In this document: piece by piece, positions 5,925-43,931 of the stretch | Position numbering within the stretch: the stretch's first letter is position 1 | Layout: each line of letters opens with the position of its first letter | DNA from: a virus | Length of the DNA: 64,000 nucleotides | Reading direction: 5' to 3' (one strand) | Virus record (IMG/VR): IMGVR_UViG_3300032241_003323 | Coordinates: 6,042 to 70,041 of that record | Program-made: the position numbers and the translations under genes | The notes under the pieces: model-generated | Told to the model about the DNA's origin: nothing | Database searches by the model: none | Seen by the model: only the letters and a program-made list of their open reading frames with translations

Positions 5925-6394
5925 TAACCCTCTTTTTCTGGCTCCTTCCCAATTACTCTAGAATGAATTTTGAGCCTTTGATTTGATTTATCTAAAAATT
6001 CATCTAGATTCATAATTCCAATAATTGACCAATGGTGATCATCTATTGGCACAAATTCCTTTTTTGTGTAATAAAAAAACTCGACATTATATTTATACGG
6101 TTTCTTTTCTACTTCTTCTAAATTCATACCAAAAATCAAATCTTTGCAAATTTCTTTACAAATTTTTATCGCATCAACCTGTGTTGCCCCACCTAATTTT
6201 CTCATTACCTGTATAGCAGCAAGTGCTTTGTCATGATTCACCAATAAATCAATAACATCACGCTTCATGTTTCCTTCTACAAATTCTGCACTTGCCGTAT
6301 AGCACGCAATAATATCATCACGTTCTGGGCGAGATACACGACAATCACGAAAATACTCAGAAAAATTAGATTCATTAATTATAAGTTCACTCAT
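5924..6394 (-). CDS. hypothetical protein
   Basis: ORF with a GGAG RBS directly after dnaE-C. Confidence 0.6.
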   Translation of the reverse strand: MSELIINESNFSEYFRDCRVSRPERDDIIACYTASAEFVEGNMKRDVIDLLVNHDKALAAIQVMRKLGGATQVDAIKICKEICKDLIFGMNLEEVEKKPYKYNVEFFYYTKKEFVPIDDHHWSIIGIMNLDEFLDKSNQRLKIHSRVIGKEPEKEG

Positions 6395-6396
6395 AT

Positions 6397-9165
6397 TCAC
6401 TCCATGACGCAATTAGAAAAATATTCCAAAACTTCATCGTCAGATAACGCTTTTTCCTTTTGTTTTTTACCAGGAGCAAGCACATAAACTCTAATATCCT
6501 CATGTTTATGACGATATTTCTTCTGACCTCTCCACTTTCCAGCTTGATTGCTTTCCAAAAGGAAAGTCTTAAAACCGCCCGATGGAGGCTGAAGTCTTAC
6601 TCTAAGTAAGTTACCTGGAACAAATTTATTTGTTTTTTCATCCCAACCAAACTCTTTTGACCACCACTCCCAGTCATCTGGCCAAATGTTTATTGTCGCT
6701 TGCTGACCTGTAACATCCTCAGCAACAATCTTCCAATAAGCATTGCCATTCTTGCTTTCGCATCTTTTTCCATCTTTTATTTTGATTTCAACTGGAGATG
6801 TAGACCCCGATAGATCACTATTTAAAGCATCAAACGTCAAATTGCCATGATAATCAGGGCTTAATTCCAATTCATGAATCCACGCAAATCCATAATATTT
6901 TTCCTCACACCCAACAGGATCAGAAAATTCTTTGACCAATTTCGGATCAATATCATATTCGTGAGGATTAAATTCAGAAAATTTTGGAAGAATTGACCTA
7001 TCAAAGTTTTGGTATTTTTTGATAGTTTTCTTTCTTTTTTGCCAAAGTTTTCGCAACTCTTTCCAAGCATTCCAAGTCTTTTTCACATTTTTAGAACGAT
7101 AAAATACTATAGTTTCTTGTTGAACATACAATCCTGTATCTTCAACTTCAATTTCTTCAATTTCAATCCGTTCAATCGCACCTTCATCGTCTTTGCTGCA
7201 AACAACATTTTTTGATGCGTCTATTTCTTGATCAATGTCATATTTAGATTTCCACTCTTCGGAGTCGAATGGATTTTCAACATCCGACTCTAAATCAGCT
7301 AACGTGCAGCTTTCTGTTAGTGCTAATTCTTTAAATTCTTGCTCATATCTTTCCAGGGAAGCATGGTAACGAGCATGAGATGATTCTATCTTTTTAAAAC
7401 AATTTTTATAATGTTCGGAAAATTTCCAAAGCGTAACAGGATCAGCATCTTTAAAACAACGAAGTCCCAACAAAGGCTTTAAAACGTTGGCTTCAGTGCC
7501 AAATTTGTACAAAAATTCCTCAAATGAAGAATATGGCTGAGAGGCTACAATTTTTTTAGCAACTTCTTCTCCAATTCCCTTTATCTTGCTGAATCCAAAA
7601 TAAATATCGTCTCCGATAAGTTCAAAGTTATCAGAAGCTTTATTTACATCAAGAGATTTTATGCCAACACCATGAATTTTCGCCTCCATTTTATATTCTT
7701 TAATTTTGTCGCTTAAAGTCTCACAGCTTAAAATAGAATTATAAAATTCATGACGATAATGAGCTTTCAAATACAGAAGCCGCATTGAAATATATGTGTA
7801 GCTAACCGCATGGGATTTATTAAAGCCGTATTCACTAAATGATTCAACTTGATTATAAAAATCATTAATTTCTTTATCGGTACATCCTAAATTTTTTCTT
7901 CCGTTGCACAAAAACATTTCTTTATATTTGGCAATCATATCAATTTTCTTCTTTGAAATTGCCTTACGTACAATTTCACAGTCCCGAAGAGGAATTTCAC
8001 CAACAACATTTAAAATTTGCATAATTTGTTCTTGAAAAACCATAACTCCATAAGTTTTTTCAAGAATCGGTCGAATCAAAGGATGTAAATCAAATTTCTC
8101 ACGACCACGCTTTCTTTCGATATATCGCTCATGCATGCGACAATTCAAAGGACCAGGACGAAACAAACTGGCATAAACAACTAAATCCTCAAATCTATCA
8201 ACACCACCAGCCCTAACTAAATTACGAATTCCTTCAGAATCAAATTGGAATATACACTTTAAATCTCCACTGTTGGCCATTTTTAAAGAATCAGGATCAT
8301 TTCTCCACTTTGCAACATCAGTCCAATCAGAGCCTCCAGGTCTATTGCAAATTCCATCAATTCCATGACGCTTTTTGATTAATTCACAACATCTTGCAAT
8401 TTGCAAAAGGTTGGAAATAACCAACAAGTCAAATTTAATCAAACCCACGGGTTGCAAGTCTTGTCCGTGTAATCCTTCCACCCAAGCACTTGCTTGTGGA
8501 CTGTCTTTTCTTTTAACTAAAGGAACAAGATCGTGTATGGGCATTTTAGATATGATTAAACCACCAGCATGTAGCCCCATGCCACGATTACGATTCAATA
8601 ATTTTTTAGCGGCAACTGCAACATCTGGATGTTCTTCACAATATTTATTCAGTTCAGGATACTGCTTCATAGCAGCATCCCAAGTCATAGCATTTCCATC
8701 TTCATCTTTATTATCAACATTTTTTGTTAAAGCCAAAACTTCATCACGGCTTAAATCATGAACACGAGCCATATCAATCAAAGCAGATTTCAAACCAAAT
8801 GTTGTATAATTGCTAATATTACAAACATAATCCTCTCCAAATGTTTGAGGAGCCCAAACATTTTTCAAAATATCTCTAATGTCTGCAATATAATCCACAT
8901 CAACGTCTGGCAAATCTCCATCAAATCTAGAATTAGGCTCTTTTTCTATAGAATAATCAGGAGCAATTCCCAAAAGCCAACAAACAATTAAATTGTTCTC
9001 ATTATAAGCAACTTTTAATCCCTTTTGATATAAATCTGCAAAATAACCAACCTTGTTTTTGGCAATTATTTCTTCTTTTTCCCATTTAAGCCTTTTTTGA
9101 TACCTAACATCTTTGTCTAGATTTAAATCAACCAATTTTTTCTGGCAAATATCAAAAATGTCCAT
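6397..9165 (-). CDS. dnaE: DNA polymerase III alpha, C-terminal part (palm/fingers/HhH/OB)
   Basis: LPDVDVDY, HAGG, LIKFDLL, IFQF, RPGP, FQEQIM, YGFNKSHA and IKGIG motifs; no PHP domain. Confidence 0.93.
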   Translation of the reverse strand: MDIFDICQKKLVDLNLDKDVRYQKRLKWEKEEIIAKNKVGYFADLYQKGLKVAYNENNLIVCWLLGIAPDYSIEKEPNSRFDGDLPDVDVDYIADIRDILKNVWAPQTFGEDYVCNISNYTTFGLKSALIDMARVHDLSRDEVLALTKNVDNKDEDGNAMTWDAAMKQYPELNKYCEEHPDVAVAAKKLLNRNRGMGLHAGGLIISKMPIHDLVPLVKRKDSPQASAWVEGLHGQDLQPVGLIKFDLLVISNLLQIARCCELIKKRHGIDGICNRPGGSDWTDVAKWRNDPDSLKMANSGDLKCIFQFDSEGIRNLVRAGGVDRFEDLVVYASLFRPGPLNCRMHERYIERKRGREKFDLHPLIRPILEKTYGVMVFQEQIMQILNVVGEIPLRDCEIVRKAISKKKIDMIAKYKEMFLCNGRKNLGCTDKEINDFYNQVESFSEYGFNKSHAVSYTYISMRLLYLKAHYRHEFYNSILSCETLSDKIKEYKMEAKIHGVGIKSLDVNKASDNFELIGDDIYFGFSKIKGIGEEVAKKIVASQPYSSFEEFLYKFGTEANVLKPLLGLRCFKDADPVTLWKFSEHYKNCFKKIESSHARYHASLERYEQEFKELALTESCTLADLESDVENPFDSEEWKSKYDIDQEIDASKNVVCSKDDEGAIERIEIEEIEVEDTGLYVQQETIVFYRSKNVKKTWNAWKELRKLWQKRKKTIKKYQNFDRSILPKFSEFNPHEYDIDPKLVKEFSDPVGCEEKYYGFAWIHELELSPDYHGNLTFDALNSDLSGSTSPVEIKIKDGKRCESKNGNAYWKIVAEDVTGQQATINIWPDDWEWWSKEFGWDEKTNKFVPGNLLRVRLQPPSGGFKTFLLESNQAGKWRGQKKYRHKHEDIRVYVLAPGKKQKEKALSDDEVLEYFSNCVME

Positions 9166-12144: not shown

Positions 12145-13215
12145 ATGTCATATATCAAATTTCAAGAATATCTAGAACGAAAGAAAAAAGTTCCAGTAGA
12201 AAAGGTTCCAGAATATAAAGGCAAAGTGGTATCTTCCCCAGACAATGAAGATATGCATAAAAATGCTGGCGGCAAAGGCCAAAAAGGAAAGCAAAATCCA
12301 TATAAATCAGGACAAGACGCAAAAGACCCAAACAAAGGCAAATTGAGTGATGGATTTGCAACAAAGGGTGATAAAAAATTAAAATATGAGCCAAGCGATG
12401 CCCTATACGGAGGAACTGGCAACGTGAGTAAAAGCGAACAAGGAGTTCCTGGGGGAAAAAAGGTTGCTGACTGGCCTAAAACAAAAACACAAGAATGGGT
12501 AGATAGAACTAAGAGTTTATCTTTAGCAGAATTTACAAAAAAAATTCGTGAGGAAAATTTGAAAGGTGTAGAAGACTTTGAAGATACTCCACATGATTCT
12601 ATTCAAAAAACAGTTTCAATTTGCAATCGAAACAAAAAATATATTTCTGATTTAGTTCGTGAAATGAAAAGAAATAGACTTTTCGGAAAACTAATGAAAG
12701 AAATGATGAATCACCCAGAAACATTTGAAAATTTGACAGAACTTATGCAAAATGAATCATACAGCCACAAATTTTCAAAATTAATCCATGAAATGGTAGG
12801 ACCACCAATTGGTGGGGAAGACGACAAAGAAATGAACAAATCTCCAAAATCTTTACCATCTCCAAGCATGGGACACGATGATATGGATCATGATGAAGAC
12901 CATGAAGACATGGATCATGACGATCACGATGATATGGGACACGATGATATGGATCATGATGATCACGATGACATGGGACATGACGACATGGATCATGATG
13001 ATCATGATGATGAAGACCATGACGACATGGGCCACGATGATGAAGACCATGACGACATGGATCATGATGATCACGATGACATGGGACATGACGACATGGA
13101 CCACGATGATCATGATATAGACCTAGATCATGATCATCCTTCTTCACAAAAGATTTCTCCTCACCAAAAATTAATGAATGCTATGAAAAACCATCCTGCA
13201 TTCCATGGAAAATAA
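12145..13215 (+). CDS. putative virion/internal protein with a His/Asp/Met-rich repeat tail
   Basis: GGAG RBS, N-terminal KFQEYLE, downstream terminator. Confidence 0.7.
   Translation: MSYIKFQEYLERKKKVPVEKVPEYKGKVVSSPDNEDMHKNAGGKGQKGKQNPYKSGQDAKDPNKGKLSDGFATKGDKKLKYEPSDALYGGTGNVSKSEQGVPGGKKVADWPKTKTQEWVDRTKSLSLAEFTKKIREENLKGVEDFEDTPHDSIQKTVSICNRNKKYISDLVREMKRNRLFGKLMKEMMNHPETFENLTELMQNESYSHKFSKLIHEMVGPPIGGEDDKEMNKSPKSLPSPSMGHDDMDHDEDHEDMDHDDHDDMGHDDMDHDDHDDMGHDDMDHDDHDDEDHDDMGHDDEDHDDMDHDDHDDMGHDDMDHDDHDIDLDHDHPSSQKISPHQKLMNAMKNHPAFHGK
12868..13137 (+). repeat. low-complexity tandem repeat (MGHDD/MDHDDHDD)n
   Basis: about 90 codons of repeated gat/gac/cat/cac/atg. Confidence 0.9.
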
Positions 13216-35656: not shown

Positions 35657-36379
35657 TCAAAAAAGCTTTTCAATCGACCATAGTTCTGGTAAATATTTTG
35701 GATTCATTGTCTCAACAAAATGTCTTCGCCAACGCTCGACAAAAATTTGAATGTTATCAATATTTTCAACAACAAATTTTCCATATTCTTTATAACCTTC
35801 AGAAATTTTCCACATATAATGTCCTGCAACTTCATTTATATCATCATCGGTAATTTGATCTTTTTTAAGATATTCTTTAATTACACTCAACAAAAAAAGA
35901 TAACGAGATTCAGGAATTTTTTTGCCAAAATTACACAATGCACGAGCGGCATTAACAGCTTTTCCAACATCAGGCATATACACTTGATTTGATCCAAATT
36001 TAAGATCATAGCCTAATTCTTTGCAAATAAATTTTTTAAATTTATTTGCTTCTAATTCATATTTTTCATGACATGAAAGACATAAAAGAAGAATATCATG
36101 ATAATTGTGTTCTTTGACAAATTCAGGCATATGACGACGAAATACATGAGGAACAACATGATGTCGATTTAAATTTTCGGCATCCCCACAAACAACACAT
36201 TGATTTAATTTTTTGGCAAAATAATAAGAATCTTTACCCCATCCTAAACCACCCGGATTAAAATTAAATCGTAAAATAGGAGGACAATCAGAAACTATAT
36301 CTACAGCACTACGATTTAAATACCACAAAGCTTTACGATAATCACAATAAAACATAAAATCTCCATCTGGAGATTGCAC
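35657..36379 (-). CDS. HNH protein resembling the EXD2 C-terminal HNH-like region; probably fused to the upstream ORF by a -1 frameshift
   Basis: SPDG..CDYRKALWY, CVVCG...HHVVP...HNYHDILLLCLSCH, RWRRHFVETMNPKYLP..W. Confidence 0.75.
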   Translation of the reverse strand: MQSPDGDFMFYCDYRKALWYLNRSAVDIVSDCPPILRFNFNPGGLGWGKDSYYFAKKLNQCVVCGDAENLNRHHVVPHVFRRHMPEFVKEHNYHDILLLCLSCHEKYELEANKFKKFICKELGYDLKFGSNQVYMPDVGKAVNAARALCNFGKKIPESRYLFLLSVIKEYLKKDQITDDDINEVAGHYMWKISEGYKEYGKFVVENIDNIQIFVERWRRHFVETMNPKYLPELWSIEKLF

Positions 36380-36636
36380 ACAAATATTTCCATAAAGTGT
36401 TTTTTCAATGCAATACGTGATCCTTTTTTTGAATTATCCTTCATAAATTTCACATCGTCCCATTCTTTTGCATCTAATTCAAATTGAATCGTTGTTGGTT
36501 TAATAAAAAGTAATTTACAAAATCCACAATCCAACAAATGGCCAGCATCGTTTTGGCTAACCATACGAATAAAATTGTTTGATTTATCAATCAATTTTAT
36601 TCTCGGATCTTTGTTATAATTATTCAAATCTTTCAC
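36316..36636 (-). CDS. PLMP/RRXRR-like small domain; probable N-terminus of the downstream HNH protein
   Basis: 'IKLIDKSNNFIRMV...AGHLL..G..KLL..KPTTIQF'; AAGGA RBS; A-runs at the junction. Confidence 0.45.
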   Translation of the reverse strand: MKDLNNYNKDPRIKLIDKSNNFIRMVSQNDAGHLLDCGFCKLLFIKPTTIQFELDAKEWDDVKFMKDNSKKGSRIALKKHFMEIFVCNLQMEILCFIVIIVKLCGI

Positions 36637-36686
36637 TTTAAAAATCCTTCAATTTGATTTGACGGGTGTATGTAACTATTTTTTAG

Positions 36687-36857
36687 CTATTCATCTCTTA
36701 GATTTTCAACAATTGAACAAAACAGTTCTTTTTGTTTTGTGGTCATTTGATTGTAGCCACATTTTGGATAGCCAGAATGAATATAGCAATGTTTGATTAA
36801 ATCGCAAAGATCTTTACGACACAGACTACTCCACCAATGACACAATTTTTCAAACAT
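36687..36857 (-). CDS. small Cys/His-containing hypothetical protein
   Basis: 56 aa ORF (MFEKLCHWW...) at the array trailer. Confidence 0.35.
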   Translation of the reverse strand: MFEKLCHWWSSLCRKDLCDLIKHCYIHSGYPKCGYNQMTTKQKELFCSIVENLRDE

Positions 36858-36892
36858 TAAAAATACTTTAAAAAATTTAATTGTGGCAGGTT

Positions 36893-37923
36893 GTGTCAAC
36901 GAAGGACACAATTTTTGGTGATTGCAAGAGGATTTTGGCGGAACACAAGGCTGTCGCAAGAAGGTGTCAACGAAGGACACAATTGTTGGCGATTTAAAAT
37001 TACATTGCAAGAGAAGTCCATTGAACATCCCGTTTTGAGGTACATCGTGTCAACGAAGGACACAATTGTTGGTGCAAGCTCTTCGAGGCCAACCAATGAA
37101 GTGTCAACGAAGGACACAATTTTTGGTGATTGCAAGATAATTCCAGTCAAAGAATCGTAGACGGCCAGCGAAGTGTCAACGAAGGACACAATTGTTGGTG
37201 ATTACAAGATGAGGATGCTTGCAAGAGCCTGCAATTGAAGGTAGTGTCAACGAAGGACACAATTGTGTGTCAACGAAGGACACAATTGTTGGTGATTGCA
37301 AGTTGATTATGAAGACAAAAAAAATGGATGTTTTCAGATCGTGTCAACGAATGACACAATTGCTGGTGATTGCAAGCAGTAGACGATTCCCATTAGGTGT
37401 CAACGAAGGACACAATTATTGGTGATTGCAAGGAATTTAAAGGGAAAAAGTAAGAAAGAGAGAATTTAGGTGTCAACGAAGGACACAATTTTTGGTGATT
37501 GCAAACCAGTGCATTTTCGATTCTGGTCCCCGCTCGAAAGGCGTGTCAACGAAGGACACAATTTTTGGTGATTGCAAAAATTTAAAATCAATTGGTGTGT
37601 GTCAACGAAGGACACAATTTTTGGTGATTGCAAAATATTTCTGATCCTGAAACCGGATCAACTCTAGCCCGTGTCAACGAAGGACACAATTTTTGGTGAT
37701 TGCAAATTGTAAAGCTAATTCATCAGTACCAATTTCATTCATGTGTCAACGAAGGACACAATTTTTGGTGATTGCAAAGATGGAGTTAATCTATAAAACA
37801 TATTACAGGAGAATGTGTCAACGAAGGACACAATTTTTGGTGATTGCAAAGGAGTAACTAGGGATATGTGCATTATTCCCCCTTCTTGTGTCAACGAAGG
37901 ACACAATTTTTGGTGATTGCAAA
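36893..37923 (-). CRISPR. type V-I CRISPR array with 16 repeat units (one truncated, several degenerate)
   Basis: 36-nt repeat (C/T)TTGCAATCACCAAAAATTGTGTCCTTCGTTGACAC with a 3' GTGTC/GACAC hairpin; spacers mostly 35-38 nt, three about 20-22 nt. Confidence 0.97.
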
Positions 37924-38110
37924 GGCACCCCTTGAAAACACCTTACATTAAGGATCATAACATGAACCTTGCGAGCGGTCAAGATTTTTATTGCAAATTT
38001 CTTCAATAAACAAAGATTTATGATTCACAAATCTTTACCACAAAACAGCTTATCATTTGCGAGCGACCAAGCGGTTTTTGAGACCACCTAATCGCTCGCA
38101 AATGATTCAA
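37924..38110 (-). promoter_or_regulatory. CRISPR leader
   Basis: non-coding, next to the uniform repeats; 15-bp inverted repeat at 38052-38066/38092-38106 and a third TTGCGAGCG copy at 37969. Confidence 0.7.
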
Positions 38111-41100
38111 TCAACTATTTTGCTGAGGAAAGATTGTCAATCCAACATTGATAGCCGCCACTTCATCAGCATCGGATAAATAACAGGAGCCACCAAATGA
38201 GAAAGGAACTGCCCCTGTAACAACATTCTTAGAAGCAAGATAATATCTTCCACCCCTAAGAGGCATCACAATATTCACATTGCCAAAATTCTTAATTAAA
38301 ATATCTTTAAATTTAGAAAGTGACAATTTGTTTTTAGTAATTTTTTCTTCATGCTCGACCAAACCATAATGATCCAAAAATTGTTTGGTCGCAGAGTTGT
38401 AATAATAAGCAGTTCCGTTCTTATTGTTTTTCAAATAAGACGAAAGCTTTTTAAGATGCCATTCTTCCACATCATCAACTGAAAGATAAGCAAATCTTGC
38501 TTTCATATGATCCACAGATTCCACTTTCAACAAAGTATTATTGTAAACGAATGGATCTTGATGACTGGTGTAATGAGGTGGAGCATCTTTAAAATGTATA
38601 TTGTGAAGTAGACACATTTCTTTAATCTTCTTCTCAACACCTCGTGCCAACCAATCCATATTTTTATTGTTTTGCTTTTTCGTATTGTTTTTACTTCCAG
38701 TAGAAGAAAGTCCAAATTCTCCACAAATAATATTGCAACCTTCCATATTGGCGATTGTCACAATGGTATTGGAAATTTTGTTAATTTTTTCTCGACATTT
38801 GTTTTTACGACTTCGCTCAAGATCCTTACGGATCTCAAAAATCTCAGGATCATTATCCTGTTTTTGCTCATCGGTACTGATGTTCAAACCAGTGCTTGCT
38901 GCAAAATAAGCACTAATCAAACTCTTTGCCGACCTAAAAGCCGAAAAAGAATGGTGATTCAAAGAGGAAACGTTTCGGATTGAAGCTTGCTCTTTAGCAA
39001 GAAAAGAAATAATTTCTTTGCGACATTCATCCAATTTCACACCAGAAGTTCCTCTAACAATCTTCCTTAAAATTGCAGAGTATTTGTAATTATACTCATA
39101 AAGACTTGGCTTCCGACTCTCAATCTTCTCCAATTCTTCCAACATATCACAATTTTCATTATTTTTTCCAATAATGAAACGATATTTTGAAACGAAATTT
39201 TTACGTTGATTTCTCCAATTTTCATATTTCTCAAAAGATAGACCAGAATAACTCAATGGATCATAATTATTTTGGCCAACTTGAATATTGGAACGAATCT
39301 TTCCTGTTTCATTCACTTGAACATAATGACCCCTGAAAGGGATTGCACCAGAATCAAATGAATTACAAACGTTCATAACAGCATAAGCATGAGATTGAGT
39401 CTGATTCTGATCATAACTCATAATCTTATCTCCCACCTTCAAACCTTCAAACTTTTTATGATTAACTTTAATTTTAAAGTTAATTGTTGCTTTGAAATTA
39501 TTATGATCAAATCTAACACCAATAGAAGCAATTTTCTCGTTCCAATTGATGTTTGGCAAAGAGTTGTTTTTGATTGATTCCTGAAGACGTAGCAACCTTT
39601 TCTTGGTTTTACGGTACTTTTGAGGATTTTCACGCAAAGATTGCAAGCTAGACTCACAAATCTTTTTGCCAATGCCACCAAAACGACCTCCACGAATAGC
39701 TACAGGATCTCCCTTGAATTCAGGATTGTGTGCATAAACCTCTTCTAAAAACCTCACATTGTGAATGTAATAATGATGATCTTCCCATTTTTTGCCATTC
39801 AAGACCCTGAGAATCATCCAAATTCTAGAATCTGGAGATCCTGGACGATCTGTTTTTTTAGCCTTATTAGGGGGAATCAAACAACCATACATTGCCGAAC
39901 CCGTAGAAAATGTATAATTGTTATTTCCGTCTTTGGTAGGATGAACTTTGTGATCTTTATATCTTTGAATCAATTGATTGTACGAAGCCGCACCAATAAT
40001 TTGTTTGCAACTTAGATCTCGTAGAGTCAAAACATACTCACACAAAGATGGAATCGGATCTTTGACAGAACCCCTTAATTCGGAACAATATTCTTTAACT
40101 GCTTCAGTTGAATCCCCAATATTTTTATAAATTTTGAATAACTGAGAAAGATTCTCGCCACCCAAATGGTAAGGACAAATCACAAAATTGTTAGAACCTT
40201 GGAAATAATGGCTATCAAAATAATTGTTAAGCATCGCAGAATTCTGCATAGCTTGAACATTTGATTCTAAATCTTTCTTGTTTTGCAACCTTTTTACAGC
40301 GAAATTATAATTTACAGTGTTTTTAGGTTGAATTTCAGCCAAAGCTGCCTTGAAACATTCGCTATATGCTTTCGGATCATAAGAAAGATCAGATTGAATT
40401 TCAATATATTTAAGAAGACCCTGATTGTTTTTCCAAATCAATTTAGAGCTTTTTTCACAAACAATTTCATCGCATTTTTCCAATACTGATTGAATTGTGT
40501 TGGCTCCTAATTTTTTATTACTGTTTTCCAACAAAATATTCTGAATTTTTCCTCGCCGTCCTGCCGCTTTTCCAACATAAGTCTTGCTAAATTCTTTCAT
40601 ATCTTTTGCACCAGCAGCAGACAAAATAATCTGTTGCAAAACAGAATAATCATCTCCTAAATCTGAATTTAGAATAAGTTCTTTGATCTTTTTAACCACG
40701 CCAACTTTGAATTCCCTATCTTCTTTTTTACCATTGCCAAAAATTCTAGAAATAGATGCCGATGCTTCTATATTTGGAAAATTATAAATTGGCAAAATGT
40801 TTTCACGAACCATGACTTTCAAATCATAATCAAAATCACCAATCTGTGATTTAAGATCTTCATAAGCCCGAAGACCATCAATCCAAACATAATCTTCACC
40901 AATCGGAGAATTCAAAAATTCAGCAGCCAATTCACTGGCTTCGTGGCCAACAACAGATTCAAATTTGCCTCGCATAACAGGTTGAGGAATTTGATATTTC
41001 GCCAAATCAGAATTAGAACGAACAGGTCTAAAGCGATTAATGGCGTAAATCAAATCCATGTCCAAACTTTTTTCTTTTTTGATAATTTTAATATTTTCCC

Positions 41101-41266
41101 GAGCAATTTCAGGAGTTATTCCACCATAAAAAGCAACAAGAAGACCCCGAAAAACATTTGTGGTGTTTTTTAGAGCAACACCTGTATCTCGAAGATACTT
41201 AATGTTCTTCTCACTGTTTGCAAAAAGATTAGAATTATAGGTCTTAATGGCAGTAATCTCAGACAT
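38111..41266 (-). CDS. cas12i: type V-I CRISPR effector Cas12i (about 1051 aa)
   Basis: motifs shared with Cas12i1/i2: FYGGIT, RFLEEVY, RKTKKR, SYDQN (RuvC-I D), CGE (RuvC-II E), MDWLARGV, TSHQDPFV, RGGRYYLA, ADEVAAINVG (RuvC-III D); AAGGA RBS. Confidence 0.93.
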   Translation of the reverse strand: MSEITAIKTYNSNLFANSEKNIKYLRDTGVALKNTTNVFRGLLVAFYGGITPEIARENIKIIKKEKSLDMDLIYAINRFRPVRSNSDLAKYQIPQPVMRGKFESVVGHEASELAAEFLNSPIGEDYVWIDGLRAYEDLKSQIGDFDYDLKVMVRENILPIYNFPNIEASASISRIFGNGKKEDREFKVGVVKKIKELILNSDLGDDYSVLQQIILSAAGAKDMKEFSKTYVGKAAGRRGKIQNILLENSNKKLGANTIQSVLEKCDEIVCEKSSKLIWKNNQGLLKYIEIQSDLSYDPKAYSECFKAALAEIQPKNTVNYNFAVKRLQNKKDLESNVQAMQNSAMLNNYFDSHYFQGSNNFVICPYHLGGENLSQLFKIYKNIGDSTEAVKEYCSELRGSVKDPIPSLCEYVLTLRDLSCKQIIGAASYNQLIQRYKDHKVHPTKDGNNNYTFSTGSAMYGCLIPPNKAKKTDRPGSPDSRIWMILRVLNGKKWEDHHYYIHNVRFLEEVYAHNPEFKGDPVAIRGGRFGGIGKKICESSLQSLRENPQKYRKTKKRLLRLQESIKNNSLPNINWNEKIASIGVRFDHNNFKATINFKIKVNHKKFEGLKVGDKIMSYDQNQTQSHAYAVMNVCNSFDSGAIPFRGHYVQVNETGKIRSNIQVGQNNYDPLSYSGLSFEKYENWRNQRKNFVSKYRFIIGKNNENCDMLEELEKIESRKPSLYEYNYKYSAILRKIVRGTSGVKLDECRKEIISFLAKEQASIRNVSSLNHHSFSAFRSAKSLISAYFAASTGLNISTDEQKQDNDPEIFEIRKDLERSRKNKCREKINKISNTIVTIANMEGCNIICGEFGLSSTGSKNNTKKQNNKNMDWLARGVEKKIKEMCLLHNIHFKDAPPHYTSHQDPFVYNNTLLKVESVDHMKARFAYLSVDDVEEWHLKKLSSYLKNNKNGTAYYYNSATKQFLDHYGLVEHEEKITKNKLSLSKFKDILIKNFGNVNIVMPLRGGRYYLASKNVVTGAVPFSFGGSCYLSDADEVAAINVGLTIFPQQNS

Positions 41267-41295
41267 TTTGAATTCCTTTTTGAAAATGGGAAAAA

Positions 41296-41321
41296 GAGTC
41301 AACGAAGGACGAGCTTGCAAG
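41296..41321 (-). repeat. solitary, internally deleted CRISPR repeat in the cas12i 5' UTR
   Basis: CTTGCAA-GCTC-GTCCTTCGTTGAC-TC: 7-nt and 13-nt blocks identical to the array repeat, in the same orientation. Confidence 0.75.
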
Positions 41322-41345
41322 GTACAAATACGCTAAAATCACTAT

Positions 41346-41873
41346 TCACTTGTTCATAAAATCCATTCGGAAGAATTCAATTGATTTTCCTTTAAATCTT
41401 GAATCATTTTTGTTTTGATTGTAATGATCACGAATCTTTTTAATCTCTTCGGGAGTTAAATTAGAAGATCCTTTTAAATTGTTACAAATAGAACACATGG
41501 TTTGATAGTTTGAGACATAATCTTTGCCACCAAGAGACTTAGGAACAATATGATCCTTAGTCATCAAAATCAATTCGCCATCTTCTTCTGCATAAAGATT
41601 GAAATGCGGACTTTCATCCGAACGAAAACGCTCTAAAAAAAATTTAGTTCCAGCTATGCCACAAGAAACACAATTCATACTTTTTTGAAATGTAAAATAT
41701 CTTTGTGAATTCATCTTTACAAGATACTTCACACCATTAACTTCATATTCTCTTTTCGGATCAAATTCAAAAGAATTTTCGATAAATGGCATTACGTCTT
41801 CAATTTTGAATTCACCGAGCCTAATAAGATTCTTTGTATTTTTTTGTTGGTTTTTTTGGCGACAACCAGACAT
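41346..41873 (-). CDS. HNH endonuclease
   Basis: CVSCG...MTKDHIVPKSLGG.D..SNYQTMCSICNNLKG. Confidence 0.85.
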   Translation of the reverse strand: MSGCRQKNQQKNTKNLIRLGEFKIEDVMPFIENSFEFDPKREYEVNGVKYLVKMNSQRYFTFQKSMNCVSCGIAGTKFFLERFRSDESPHFNLYAEEDGELILMTKDHIVPKSLGGKDYVSNYQTMCSICNNLKGSSNLTPEEIKKIRDHYNQNKNDSRFKGKSIEFFRMDFMNK

Positions 41874-41963
41874 GAACAAAACTCCAGTTTTTAGAAAAAT
41901 TTTTCAATACCCAATAAACTAATACCATGAATTCTAAATAAGTCAATATTTTTCTTAACAACC

Positions 41964-42120
41964 AAAAAAAATAAAAAGCCAGCCTGAAAAGGATGGCTGT
42001 GTATCTCTGACATCTCTTTAAGGAGGAAAATACTATTCCATCCAATATCGGCGTGCCAGAAGCCGCTGGCATTGTTTGGCCAAGTTTTTGCCATTTTCGG
42101 TCAACGCAACCGAACAAAAA
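41964..42120 (-). ncRNA. candidate structured RNA / attenuator ending in an intrinsic terminator
   Basis: GC-enriched intergenic region with several hairpins; GCCATCCT-TTTC-AGGCTGGC followed by a U-tract. Confidence 0.4.
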
Positions 42121-42126
42121 GCATAT

Positions 42127-42306
42127 TCAAATACAGCCCAAAGCCTTTTTACCTTTTTTCTTGCATGCCTCTGGACCATGAAACCCAATAGTATCAAGAG
42201 GCTTTCTTCTGACCATTTCTCCAGCCCCTATAGGCAAAGAATATACCGCAATTGAATTGGTTCCTGTGCCAGATTCCTTTAACTCAAGCCACTCTTTAAA
42301 TCCCAT
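42127..42306 (-). CDS. 59-aa ORF MGFKEWLELKE...; putative internal head protein
   Basis: read manually; AGGAG RBS. Confidence 0.55.
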   Translation of the reverse strand: MGFKEWLELKESGTGTNSIAVYSLPIGAGEMVRRKPLDTIGFHGPEACKKKGKKALGCI

Positions 42307-42318
42307 AAATAGCTCCTA

Positions 42319-42786
42319 TTAAGACATAGCTGGAGGACCAGATTGACCTTGCAATGCTGGAGTCCATCCAGTAGTGATAAATTTTTCCAATTCCTCTCGA
42401 CCCAAATGATATTCTTTCGTGTCTTTATAACTGGACTTATTCAATCTATTGCCATGCAAATAACTTCTATCACGTTTTTGTGGTTTAAGTCGAATAGAAG
42501 CACCTCCTTGTGGAGTCATAGAACCAGGAACGATTTCCCAAGCTGAAAGTTTGTACATAACATCTGGATCTTTTCCAATACCAAAGTGAGCAGAAACTTG
42601 TGGTTCTTTTAGTGCTTTAACAATGTCTTTCCATTCAATTCCCATTTCATCGCCAAGAACAGCAAAATAATCTTCTTTATCTGAAGATTTATCTGAATTA
42701 TCACCCATAGACGAATCACGAGATTTTTCTGGAGTTGGGTCCATATCTTCTATAAATTTCTTAAAACCATATAAAGTGAATTTCAT
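42319..42786 (-). CDS. hypothetical protein (MKFTLYGFKKFIE start)
   Basis: true start is probably 42786; the upstream extension overlaps the divergent gene. Confidence 0.6.
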   Translation of the reverse strand: MKFTLYGFKKFIEDMDPTPEKSRDSSMGDNSDKSSDKEDYFAVLGDEMGIEWKDIVKALKEPQVSAHFGIGKDPDVMYKLSAWEIVPGSMTPQGGASIRLKPQKRDRSYLHGNRLNKSSYKDTKEYHLGREELEKFITTGWTPALQGQSGPPAMS

Positions 42787-42814
42787 AATTGTATATATAA
42801 TAGTCGGAGGAATT

Positions 42815-43255
42815 ATGAATAATAACAAATATTTTAACACACCATCTCCAGGATTTTCTAAATTCCGTGAACTTATGGATTGCTGGGATAAACACTGTTT
42901 TTTTGAACAACAAGAAAAATCTATTAATGATCTAATGGATCGCCACGGAATGATACTATTTTTCAAAAAAGATAACGATTTGTTTGGATCACCTGAAGAT
43001 AGCCGATTAATATTTGCAAAATTAAAAAATGATGAAGAAGACGATCCAATGCAACCTGGATTTAAAGATGAAGCTAAATTTTTAGGAATTAATATTCTAA
43101 AAGCTATGTTTGGATCTTCTGAAGATTCTGTAGAAAATTTATTTGGCAACAATGATATTCCGCATATTCATGTCTGTGATAGAGAAGATGTCATTAAAAC
43201 AATCATGAGTCATAAACCAAAAAAAGAAAAATCCAAAAAGAAGAAAAAGAAATAA
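42815..43255 (+). CDS. hypothetical protein
   Basis: GGAGG RBS before MNNNKY. Confidence 0.6.
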   Translation: MNNNKYFNTPSPGFSKFRELMDCWDKHCFFEQQEKSINDLMDRHGMILFFKKDNDLFGSPEDSRLIFAKLKNDEEDDPMQPGFKDEAKFLGINILKAMFGSSEDSVENLFGNNDIPHIHVCDREDVIKTIMSHKPKKEKSKKKKKK

Positions 43256-43262
43256 GGTTTAA

Positions 43263-43931
43263 ATGTTACCATTCCCTTCAGATAACGGCAAAAGAAAGTA
43301 TCAATGCTTTGTTTGTGGAATAACTTTTGAAGAATATGAAAATTATAAAAATCACATTCTTGAAAGCCACGAAGAGGGCAGAGAATTTGTAATTTGTCCT
43401 CTTAATCGTTGCGGAGCACCAGTTAGAGATTTAAGATCCCATTATAAATCACGCCATCCGTATGAAAAGTCCGTTCCGAAAACAGGGCAAATGAAAGCTA
43501 TTATCTGGAAAGATCAAAGCTCCAAAAAAGATGGAAAACTAAAACAAAGAAAACCCAAATTTAGAGAAGGTTATTTAATATCAACTAAAAATGGTGGAAA
43601 AGAAATGCATTATAGATCAGGAATGGAATGCAATGTCTATGAATGCCTAGAAGCAATGACAGAATGTATTGGATATGAAGTCGAACCTTTTAAAGTTCAA
43701 TATTCATTTATGGGAGAAATTCACGAATATAATCCAGACTTAAAAGTATGTTTTGCAGATGGAAGAATTGAAATTTGGGAAATTAAACCATCAAACCAAA
43801 CACATCTGCCCAAAAATTCAGCTAAATGGGCAGCGTGCAATCAATATTGTGAAGCAAGAGGGTATGGATTTATGGTTTTAACAGAAATTGGAATGAATAA
43901 ATTAAAACAATCACTGACCAAGAATCTTTAA
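43263..43931 (+). CDS. C2H2 zinc fingers fused to a TnsA/gp4-like PD-(D/E)xK endonuclease
   Basis: CFVC..F..Y..H...H; CPLNRC...H....H; YRSGME, YNPD, EIKP, KWAAC. Confidence 0.75.
   Translation: MLPFPSDNGKRKYQCFVCGITFEEYENYKNHILESHEEGREFVICPLNRCGAPVRDLRSHYKSRHPYEKSVPKTGQMKAIIWKDQSSKKDGKLKQRKPKFREGYLISTKNGGKEMHYRSGMECNVYECLEAMTECIGYEVEPFKVQYSFMGEIHEYNPDLKVCFADGRIEIWEIKPSNQTHLPKNSAKWAACNQYCEARGYGFMVLTEIGMNKLKQSLTKNL

Follow-up and report, generated by a model that had tools for sequence, protein, structure and literature searches.

The analyzed stretch, 64,000 nucleotides (nt) at positions 6,042 to 70,041 of the IMG/VR virus record IMGVR_UViG_3300032241_003323 (hereafter, the window), encodes a Cas12i effector followed by a CRISPR array, and just ahead of cas12i lies a lone fragment derived from the array repeat. 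This fragment, psiR, is a real, repeat-derived and solitary element, and comparison with other loci suggests that it is the window's copy of a leader element shared by several Cas12i loci and placed 20–32 nt ahead of the start codon. We favor a model, to which we give a probability of roughly 0.4, whereby psiR is an operator in the leader of the cas12i messenger RNA (mRNA) that mimics the handle of the CRISPR RNA (crRNA) and lets crRNA-free Cas12i hide the ribosome-binding site of its own gene. Cas12i without crRNA would bind the handle mimic in its own mRNA via the surface with which it grips the repeat, and the next ~30 nt, which contain the Shine-Dalgarno sequence and the start codon, would be held in the place of a spacer and hidden from the ribosome. 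Abundant crRNAs with intact handles would capture Cas12i and relieve the block, and Cas12i synthesis would then follow the crRNA supply. In this scheme, Cas12i binding, occlusion of the ribosome-binding site and feedback are the steps that we infer.

Anatomy of the element ahead of cas12i

psiR is composed of CTTGCAA, GCTC, a 13-nt hairpin core and a final TC (Table 1). CTTGCAA equals the first 7 nt, at the 5′ end, of older repeat variants, GCTC stands for 14 nt of the repeat, the core is identical to the array repeat at handle positions −15 to −3, and the penultimate base again differs. Handle positions are numbered here in the register of the Cas12i2 structure, in which the 23-nt handle comprises a 6-nt tail, a stem of six base pairs, a 2-nt bulge and a 3-nt loop (PMC7567891). 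Four of the six stem pairs, the 3-nt loop UUC and the 2-nt bulge UU are kept in the psiR core. Compared with the handle of its own array, psiR agrees at 16 of 23 nt and differs at −23, −22, −19, −18, −17, −16 and −2; seven of the nine positions that are invariant among five Cas12i array handles are retained, including G(−15), the loop and the bulge. U(−14) is retained as well, and Lys537 contacts G(−15) together with U(−14) (PMC7567891). By contrast, A(−23), found without exception in the five array handles, is replaced by G, and position −22, which is G in Cas12i2, is changed from A to C.

The array and cas12i are co-oriented, and psiR therefore stands in crRNA sense. It sits in the 80-nt intergenic gap adjoining cas12i, 24 nt after the stop codon of an HNH endonuclease gene, and the 29 nt that separate it from the ATG take the place of a spacer and contain the Shine-Dalgarno sequence. 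In the window, psiR is the sole copy of the 17-nt hairpin outside the array: with ≤3 mismatches allowed, the hairpin has 17 matches, 16 in the array and one in psiR, where shuffling (100 shuffles) predicts 0.02. Across the full record of 70,041 nt, the exact 13-mer has 16 occurrences, of which psiR holds one and the array the other 15. These results bear out the initial annotation of the sequence, which had described a solitary repeat-derived element in crRNA orientation ahead of cas12i, a Shine-Dalgarno sequence and ATG following it in the position of a spacer, and a hairpin with exact loop and inner stem and a mismatched outer stem.

The gene downstream of psiR encodes a Cas12i with full-length homology to Cas12i2 (PDB chain 6ltp_A; E = 2.9e-162, residues 5–1045). 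Where Cas12i2 has its pre-crRNA processing residues K18, H485 and H486, the window protein has K20, H497 and H498; K20 lies within an SEKN motif aligned with ERKN of Cas12i2, and H497 and H498 are invariant across 36 sequences. With a full-length Cas12i, an adjacent array of handle hairpins and the residues for self-processing, the locus is, judged from its sequence, a type V-I CRISPR-Cas locus, a type reported from huge phages (PMC7162821).

Handle copies in the leaders of other Cas12i loci

Comparative support for the idea that psiR belongs to a family of leader elements comes from other Cas12i loci. The comparison set comprises five distinct loci, that is, the window and four others: the native Cas12i2 locus (L010; 2427.8 bits against 6ltp_A, residues 1–1054), the native Cas12i1 locus (L009; 2499.3 bits over residues 1–1093), a Cas12i1-like locus (L011; 685 bits) and a locus encoding a distant relative of Cas12i2 (L012; 339 bits). 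A covariance model was built from the array handles of these five loci, in which 30 of 30 cells are paired, four of the six pairs show compensatory changes and none of 500 shuffles attains the observed score; under this model, array repeats score 19.4–34.1 bits.

The leader of the Cas12i2 locus contains a lone handle copy in crRNA sense (2436–2462) that ends 32 nt ahead of the ATG, matches the local handle at 21 of 23 nt with all six pairs intact, scores 25.5 bits (E = 0.0012) and, like psiR, is without A(−23). In the Cas12i1-like locus, a nearly full-length repeat copy, also in crRNA sense (2433–2468), ends 20 nt ahead of a GTG start codon that follows the Shine-Dalgarno-like AAGGGA; it matches the local handle at 21 of 23 nt with one pair broken (22.3 bits, E = 0.0065), and an in-frame GTG 5 nt after it may be an alternative start. 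Outside the array, no site in either locus comes near the leader copy in its match to the handle, the runners-up being at 15/23 and 14/23. In the minimum-energy fold of the Cas12i1-like leader, the 3′ arm of the hairpin, GCAC, pairs with GUGC just ahead of the Shine-Dalgarno sequence (2464–2478), which could be an alternative structure that is shifted by protein binding.

A hairpin-bearing leader copy is thus present in three of the five loci, well preserved in the Cas12i2 and Cas12i1-like loci and eroded in the window, whose copy is the weakest of the three. Each copy resembles the handle of its own array more than the best foreign handle (16 vs 15 matches in the window, 21 vs 18 in the Cas12i2 locus and 21 vs 17 in the Cas12i1-like locus). 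The window and Cas12i2 copies have the same short build, in which the last ~20 nt of the repeat directly follow its first 7, with 9–10 middle nt gone, and in all three leaders the stretch between copy and start codon (29, 32 and 20 nt, respectively) holds the ribosome-binding region. The leader of L012 has only AGAAATCCG, 9 nt that correspond to the 6-nt tail and three stem bases. The proposal of the initial annotation that repeat-like sequence be sought upstream of other cas12i genes is accordingly answered in the affirmative for the Cas12i2 and Cas12i1-like loci, only by the start of the handle for L012, and in the negative for the Cas12i1 locus.

Sites scored against a sigma-70-type consensus lie next to these copies. 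In the Cas12i2 locus, a promoter-like site with TTTACA, 17 nt and TAAAAT with TG (10/12) ends 9 nt ahead of the copy; in the Cas12i1-like locus, a perfect consensus site with TTGACA, 18 nt and TATAAT (12/12) ends 3 nt ahead of it; and in L012 a promoter-like site (9/12) ends 8 nt ahead of the 9-nt handle start. Transcripts usually start ~7 nt after the −10 box. From this rule and the observed spacings, we expect the mRNAs of all three loci to start at the handle copy or among its first bases. Copies that match their own repeat and adjoin promoters argue for a selected leader element and not a random remnant.

Handles also occur ahead of genes other than cas12i. L012 and L013, a locus identical to L012 in the cas12i region, are in two huge-phage records, and these phages carry four non-array handles (22.2–26.9 bits) far from the array. 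Downstream of three of the four, an open reading frame (ORF) starts within 11–62 nt, and the layout ahead of these genes is the same as at cas12i, with promoter, handle, short gap and start codon. One of the four follows a promoter with TTGACT, 17 nt and TAGAAT, and a second handle-like hairpin comes after it.

In the Cas12i1 locus the array lies upstream of the gene, and its last repeat ends about 438 nt ahead of the ATG. Between the array and cas12i1 is a 33-amino-acid hydrophobic ORF (2133–2234), a run of tRNA (transfer RNA)-like T-arm repeats is found just downstream of cas12i1 (5940–6250), and a degenerate handle-like hairpin (13 bits) is located at 6467–6489.

The loci L009–L014 were obtained by alignment-based scans with narrower alignments (A2, A3 and A4); L014 is the same contig as L009. 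A full HMMER search yielded 50 cluster representatives (45 with E ≤ 1e-10), and none was more than 40% identical to the query except a fragment of the query itself, the sole return of a word-based protein search. Bacterial and archaeal genomes, one for each of 185,579 species, yielded no cas12i relatives (0 among 40 and 23 candidate stretches), nor did tblastn searches of 50,697 phage records and 72,556 plasmids or a single-protein scan of viral contigs. A pattern search over viral contigs for TTGCAA, 3–6 nt and the core returned five loci (L019–L023), which we regard as chance matches because they are single hits in coding-like sequence without an array.

The feedback model, competing explanations and known systems

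Placing the handle copy next to the ribosome-binding site rationalizes how Cas12i might act on its own mRNA. The mature Cas12i2 crRNA consists of the 23-nt handle and a 31-nt spacer (PMC7567891), and with a spacer of this length the spacer footprint of the bound protein would span the stretches of 29, 32 and 20 nt ahead of the three start codons. Cas12i2 cuts pre-crRNA between −24 and −23, mutation of A(−23) abolishes processing and mutation of −22 reduces it (PMC7567891); the loss of A(−23) in two of the three copies, those of the window and the Cas12i2 locus, fits a mimic that would be bound and not cut. Of the autoregulation by binding or cleavage that the initial annotation had proposed, the regulatory part gains partial comparative support, chiefly from the Cas12i2 and Cas12i1-like leaders, while the cleavage part is doubtful now that A(−23) is seen to be gone. 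In agreement with our model, Cas proteins repress translation in a synthetic setting in mammalian cells when Cas-binding motifs are placed in a 5′ untranslated region (UTR) (PMC10115826). The likeness to the RNA ligand of Cas12i is clear in the Cas12i2 and Cas12i1-like leaders; in the window, the core is kept but the score is at background level. Because the window mimic is eroded and lies between the HNH gene and cas12i and not at a transcript start, it would be a weak operator, if active; it may be a low-affinity operator or a decaying one, and we give similar weight to both. It is tempting to speculate, although we hold this broader idea only tentatively and think it somewhat improbable, that Cas12i effectors, including native Cas12i2, control their own translation via a handle mimic at the mRNA start and that the lone handles extend this regulation to other genes of huge phages.

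Several observations weigh against the operator model. In psiR the outer two stem pairs are broken (U·C and C·U), with 7 of 23 handle positions changed. Under the covariance model psiR scores 12.7 bits (E = 1.9), with a match limited to model positions 9–21 (exactly 41298–41310), and unrelated background matches reach the same level with 12.6 and 12.4 bits; scored by identity to the 23-nt handle alone, psiR is equalled by one unrelated site (2 of 125,654 positions at 16/23). Its hairpin folds at −0.8 kcal/mol vs −3.7 for the array repeat and does not form when the 81-nt leader is folded to minimum energy (z = +1.06); in the Cas12i1-like locus, too, the hairpin is missing from the minimum-energy fold of the leader. 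Unlike in the Cas12i2 and Cas12i1-like loci, there is no promoter-like site between the HNH stop codon and psiR, and psiR is intercistronic because the nearest such site precedes the HNH gene. The L012 leader lacks the hairpin (12/23), the Cas12i1 leader has no handle-like match near the start codon, and the comparison extends over only five distinct loci. The background-level score, the unstable hairpin, the changed positions with their broken outer stem, and the intercistronic site close behind the HNH stop codon with no adjoining promoter also suit a decayed relic, now neutral, either of an ancestral leader handle or of the terminal repeat of a former upstream array, and the decay could have set in after the HNH gene came between promoter and psiR. 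A ready origin for repeat fragments is provided by the older array end with its half-repeat duplication, its truncated repeat and CTTGCAAGC in a spacer, and the upstream array of the Cas12i1 locus means that an upstream repeat could be a leftover. We consider such a relic possible yet rather doubtful: all seven psiR differences fall outside the 13-nt core, for which random chance is C(10,7)/C(23,7), or ~5e-4, by our own arithmetic and with a bias from how psiR was found; the 29 nt to the start codon match the 32 and 20 nt of the Cas12i2 and Cas12i1-like loci; and decay in the window leaves the presence of leader copies across the family unexplained.

Alternatively, psiR and the sequence that follows it could form a crRNA-like RNA that steers Cas12i to the DNA of its own promoter and thereby represses transcription, a mode of action known for Cas12a from degenerate repeats upstream of cas genes in the CreR systems (bioRxiv 10.1101/2023.03.10.532045). 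The position of psiR upstream of the effector gene and its crRNA sense agree with such a guide, which we nonetheless judge very improbable. The best sites for the would-be spacer in the window (40000–43200) have no TTN protospacer-adjacent motif (PAM); the best seed matches between ~600 nt ahead of the start codon and 200 nt beyond it are 7/10 in the window, 6/10 in the Cas12i2 locus and 7/10 in the Cas12i1-like locus; and the best match in the whole window is 14/20, vs 14–16 for 30 shuffled queries. Ahead of the DNA that encodes the would-be spacer stands CTC, CGG or CAC, and not TTN. The handle, near-intact in the Cas12i2 and Cas12i1-like loci (21/23), is not intact in the window (16/23, 12.7 bits), where it has no promoter of its own, and in those two loci the promoter is that of cas12i itself. 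psiR might also load or titrate Cas12i as a decoy, or mark a cut between the HNH and cas12i cistrons that sets the 5′ end or stability of the mRNA. Solitary repeat units of viruses are known as decoys (PMC10651486), and for the solitary repeats that precede cas12a in a large fraction of V-A loci, inhibition of Cas has been suggested (bioRxiv 10.1101/2023.03.03.530964); the location between two cistrons and the conserved processing residues of the window Cas12i would suit a processing signal. This too is improbable, if less so than a guide: with A(−23) changed to G and −22 from A to C, cleavage by Cas12i is unlikely, one weak copy makes a poor decoy beside 16 array repeats, and a decoy needs no fixed distance to the start codon. 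A chance resemblance without common origin with the repeat could account for a 16/23 identity that an unrelated site equals and for a model score at background. It is the least probable reading of all, given that an exact 13-nt match and the 7-nt repeat start stand together in the right sense in an 80-nt gap by cas12i, that chance predicts 0.02 matches to the 17-mer over the entire window, and that handle copies occupy the same place in the Cas12i2 and Cas12i1-like loci. Two further roles were considered for psiR and rejected, namely that of a promoter, as no −10 box lies 16–18 nt after TTGCAA or TTGACT (by eye; the promoter listing has none), and that of a terminator, as conservation of the U-run behind the hairpin does not extend to the Cas12i2 or Cas12i1-like locus.

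Autogenous translational operators that mimic the main RNA ligand of a protein are found in ribosomal-protein operons, in E. coli thrS and in phage T4 regA and gene 32. The operator model for psiR follows the same logic, with free protein binding a look-alike of its ligand beside the ribosome-binding site of its own mRNA. Our literature searches found no description of an autogenous ligand-mimicry operator for a CRISPR effector, the nearest being the synthetic 5′ UTR case (PMC10115826). Likewise, and in line with the expectation of the initial annotation that nothing of the kind had been described for type V-I, full-text searches found no account of Cas12i autoregulation via a repeat-like leader or its own mRNA, and the main texts of the papers on CreR, V-A solitary repeats and Racr contain no mention of Cas12i or V-I.

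Among known systems, CreR comes close to psiR: these degenerate mini-CRISPRs direct autorepression of I-B, I-E and V-A effectors (bioRxiv 10.1101/2023.03.10.532045), and both cases have a repeat-derived element upstream of the effector gene and a proposed negative feedback in competition with canonical crRNAs. CreR, however, acts in trans on promoter DNA via a PAM-flanked, partly complementary target, and no such target was found for the window, the Cas12i2 locus or the Cas12i1-like locus, whereas psiR belongs to the leader of the very mRNA that encodes the effector, where its action would be in cis and on translation; the subtypes covered in the main text of that work do not include type V-I (bioRxiv 10.1101/2023.03.10.532045). 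The V-A solitary repeats of Shmakov et al. (bioRxiv 10.1101/2023.03.03.530964) are also single repeat-like sequences by a type V effector gene, conserved within clades and without mini-array or conserved target, for which effector binding or inhibition was suggested; unlike for psiR, the main text reports no fixed distance to the start codon or placement at the transcript start. As in viral solitary repeat units, or Racrs (PMC10651486), psiR is a single repeat copy on a mobile element, here a virus record, that lies outside an array and could occupy a Cas protein, but Racrs mimic host repeats and disarm host immunity and psiR copies the phage's own repeat, in the leader of an effector gene that is likewise the phage's own. 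Finally, tracr-L, a natural non-canonical guide-like RNA that brings about Cas9 autorepression (Workman et al. 2021), resembles the role proposed for psiR in these two respects and differs in acting on promoter DNA and in belonging to type II with its trans-activating crRNA.

What would be new in psiR is a repeat-derived regulator of a cas gene that acts in cis, at the RNA level and in type V-I. Known repeat-derived RNAs, tracr-L for Cas9 and CreR for I-B, I-E and V-A, set effector levels through DNA targeting, and a third kind, the lone repeats ahead of cas12a, has no known role. If our model is true, a handle mimic in the effector's own leader would constitute a different, purely RNA-level circuit of the classical ligand-mimicry type, a cis feedback matching effector synthesis to crRNA supply; if the lone handles ahead of other genes work as the same device, Cas12i would be a post-transcriptional regulator of huge-phage genes. 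The model would bear on the balance of effector and guide in phages that have CRISPR but no adaptation genes, and on the lone Cas12i handles ahead of other phage genes. It is easy to test because one well-preserved example belongs to Cas12i2, which has been purified, whose structure is solved and for which the repeat positions required in processing and several base contacts to the repeat are mapped. For the window alone the gain would be smaller, its copy being the most eroded of the three and one that may no longer work.

Genomic context of the cas12i-CRISPR unit

The source virus record has an estimated completeness of 15% at 70,041 nt and is therefore a fragment of a very large phage. Table 1 lists the features of the unit together with the lone handles of the L012 and L013 phages. 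The promoter-like site ahead of the HNH gene is the nearest one upstream on the cas12i strand and is preceded by a terminator-like hairpin, and an Rfam scan of 36500–42500 gave no relevant match.

Table 1 Coordinates of psiR, its surroundings and the lone handles
Feature	Position	Strand	Details
psiR, 26-nt solitary repeat-derived element	41321–41296	minus	CTTGCAAGCTCGTCCTTCGTTGACTC
psiR core	41310–41298	minus	GTCCTTCGTTGAC
29-nt segment between psiR and ATG	41295–41267	minus	TTTTTCCCATTTTCAAAAAGGAATTCAAA; in spacer place
Shine-Dalgarno sequence	41278–41274	minus	AAGGA; inside the 29-nt segment
cas12i start codon	41266–41264	minus	ATG
cas12i	41266–38111	minus	1051 amino acids
Promoter-like site, array leader	37982–37954	minus	TTGACC, 17 nt, TATGAT; TG ahead of −10 box
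CRISPR array	37923–36893	minus	16 hairpins; 36-nt repeat TTTGCAATCACCAAAAATTGTGTCCTTCGTTGACAC; downstream of cas12i
HNH endonuclease gene	41873–41346	minus	Pfam HNH_5, E = 1.4e-09; directly upstream of psiR and cas12i
Promoter-like site ahead of HNH gene	41958–41931	minus	TTAAGA, 16 nt, TAGAAT
Lone handles L015–L018	G002:C1:40662 and 49401; G001:C1:123599 and 145199		

HNH endonuclease genes flank the cas12i-CRISPR unit on both sides and on the same strand, the second lying downstream at 35657–36379 (minus) with a weak match (E = 0.002). For a strain comparison, contigs from four DNA runs of one study were aligned with 36500–43300 of the window. A contig of run X3 spans 41162–41337 with three differences, 41240 being among the differences listed; none of the contigs joins across the HNH gene, and in contigs from other DNA runs, part of the upstream HNH gene is present a second time in diverged form (joint 41507/41659).

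The older end of the array is rearranged (36780–37310, minus). A half-repeat is present there in tandem duplicate (37289–37244), one repeat has a truncated 5′ part (37082–37047), spacers measure 18–20 and 47 nt vs the usual 35–38, CTTGCAAGC lies within a spacer at 37224–37217, and a degenerate terminal repeat is found near 36840. Three copies of TTGCGAGC stand in the stretch from the cas12i stop codon to the array (37965–38101): two are arranged as an inverted repeat with a 27-nt loop (38101–38049), and the promoter-like site of the array has the third between its −35 and −10 boxes (37976–37969). These copies could be the site of a regulator. Seven of the eight window matches to the motif TTGCRAGC fall within 37217–41320, and two of those matches have their origin in a spacer or the 5′ end of the repeat itself. 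The array leader also contains TTTGCAAT-AAAAAT-C-TTGACC (37977–38000, minus), which resembles the repeat with two internal deletions and whose TTGACC doubles as the −35 box for the promoter-like site of the array; the 3′ end of the intact repeat contains the consensus −35 hexamer TTGACA. Elsewhere in the window, a long imperfect tandem repeat of GAT, CAT and GAC codons with periods of 15–69 (12874–13116) looks like a coding repeat rich in Asp and His.

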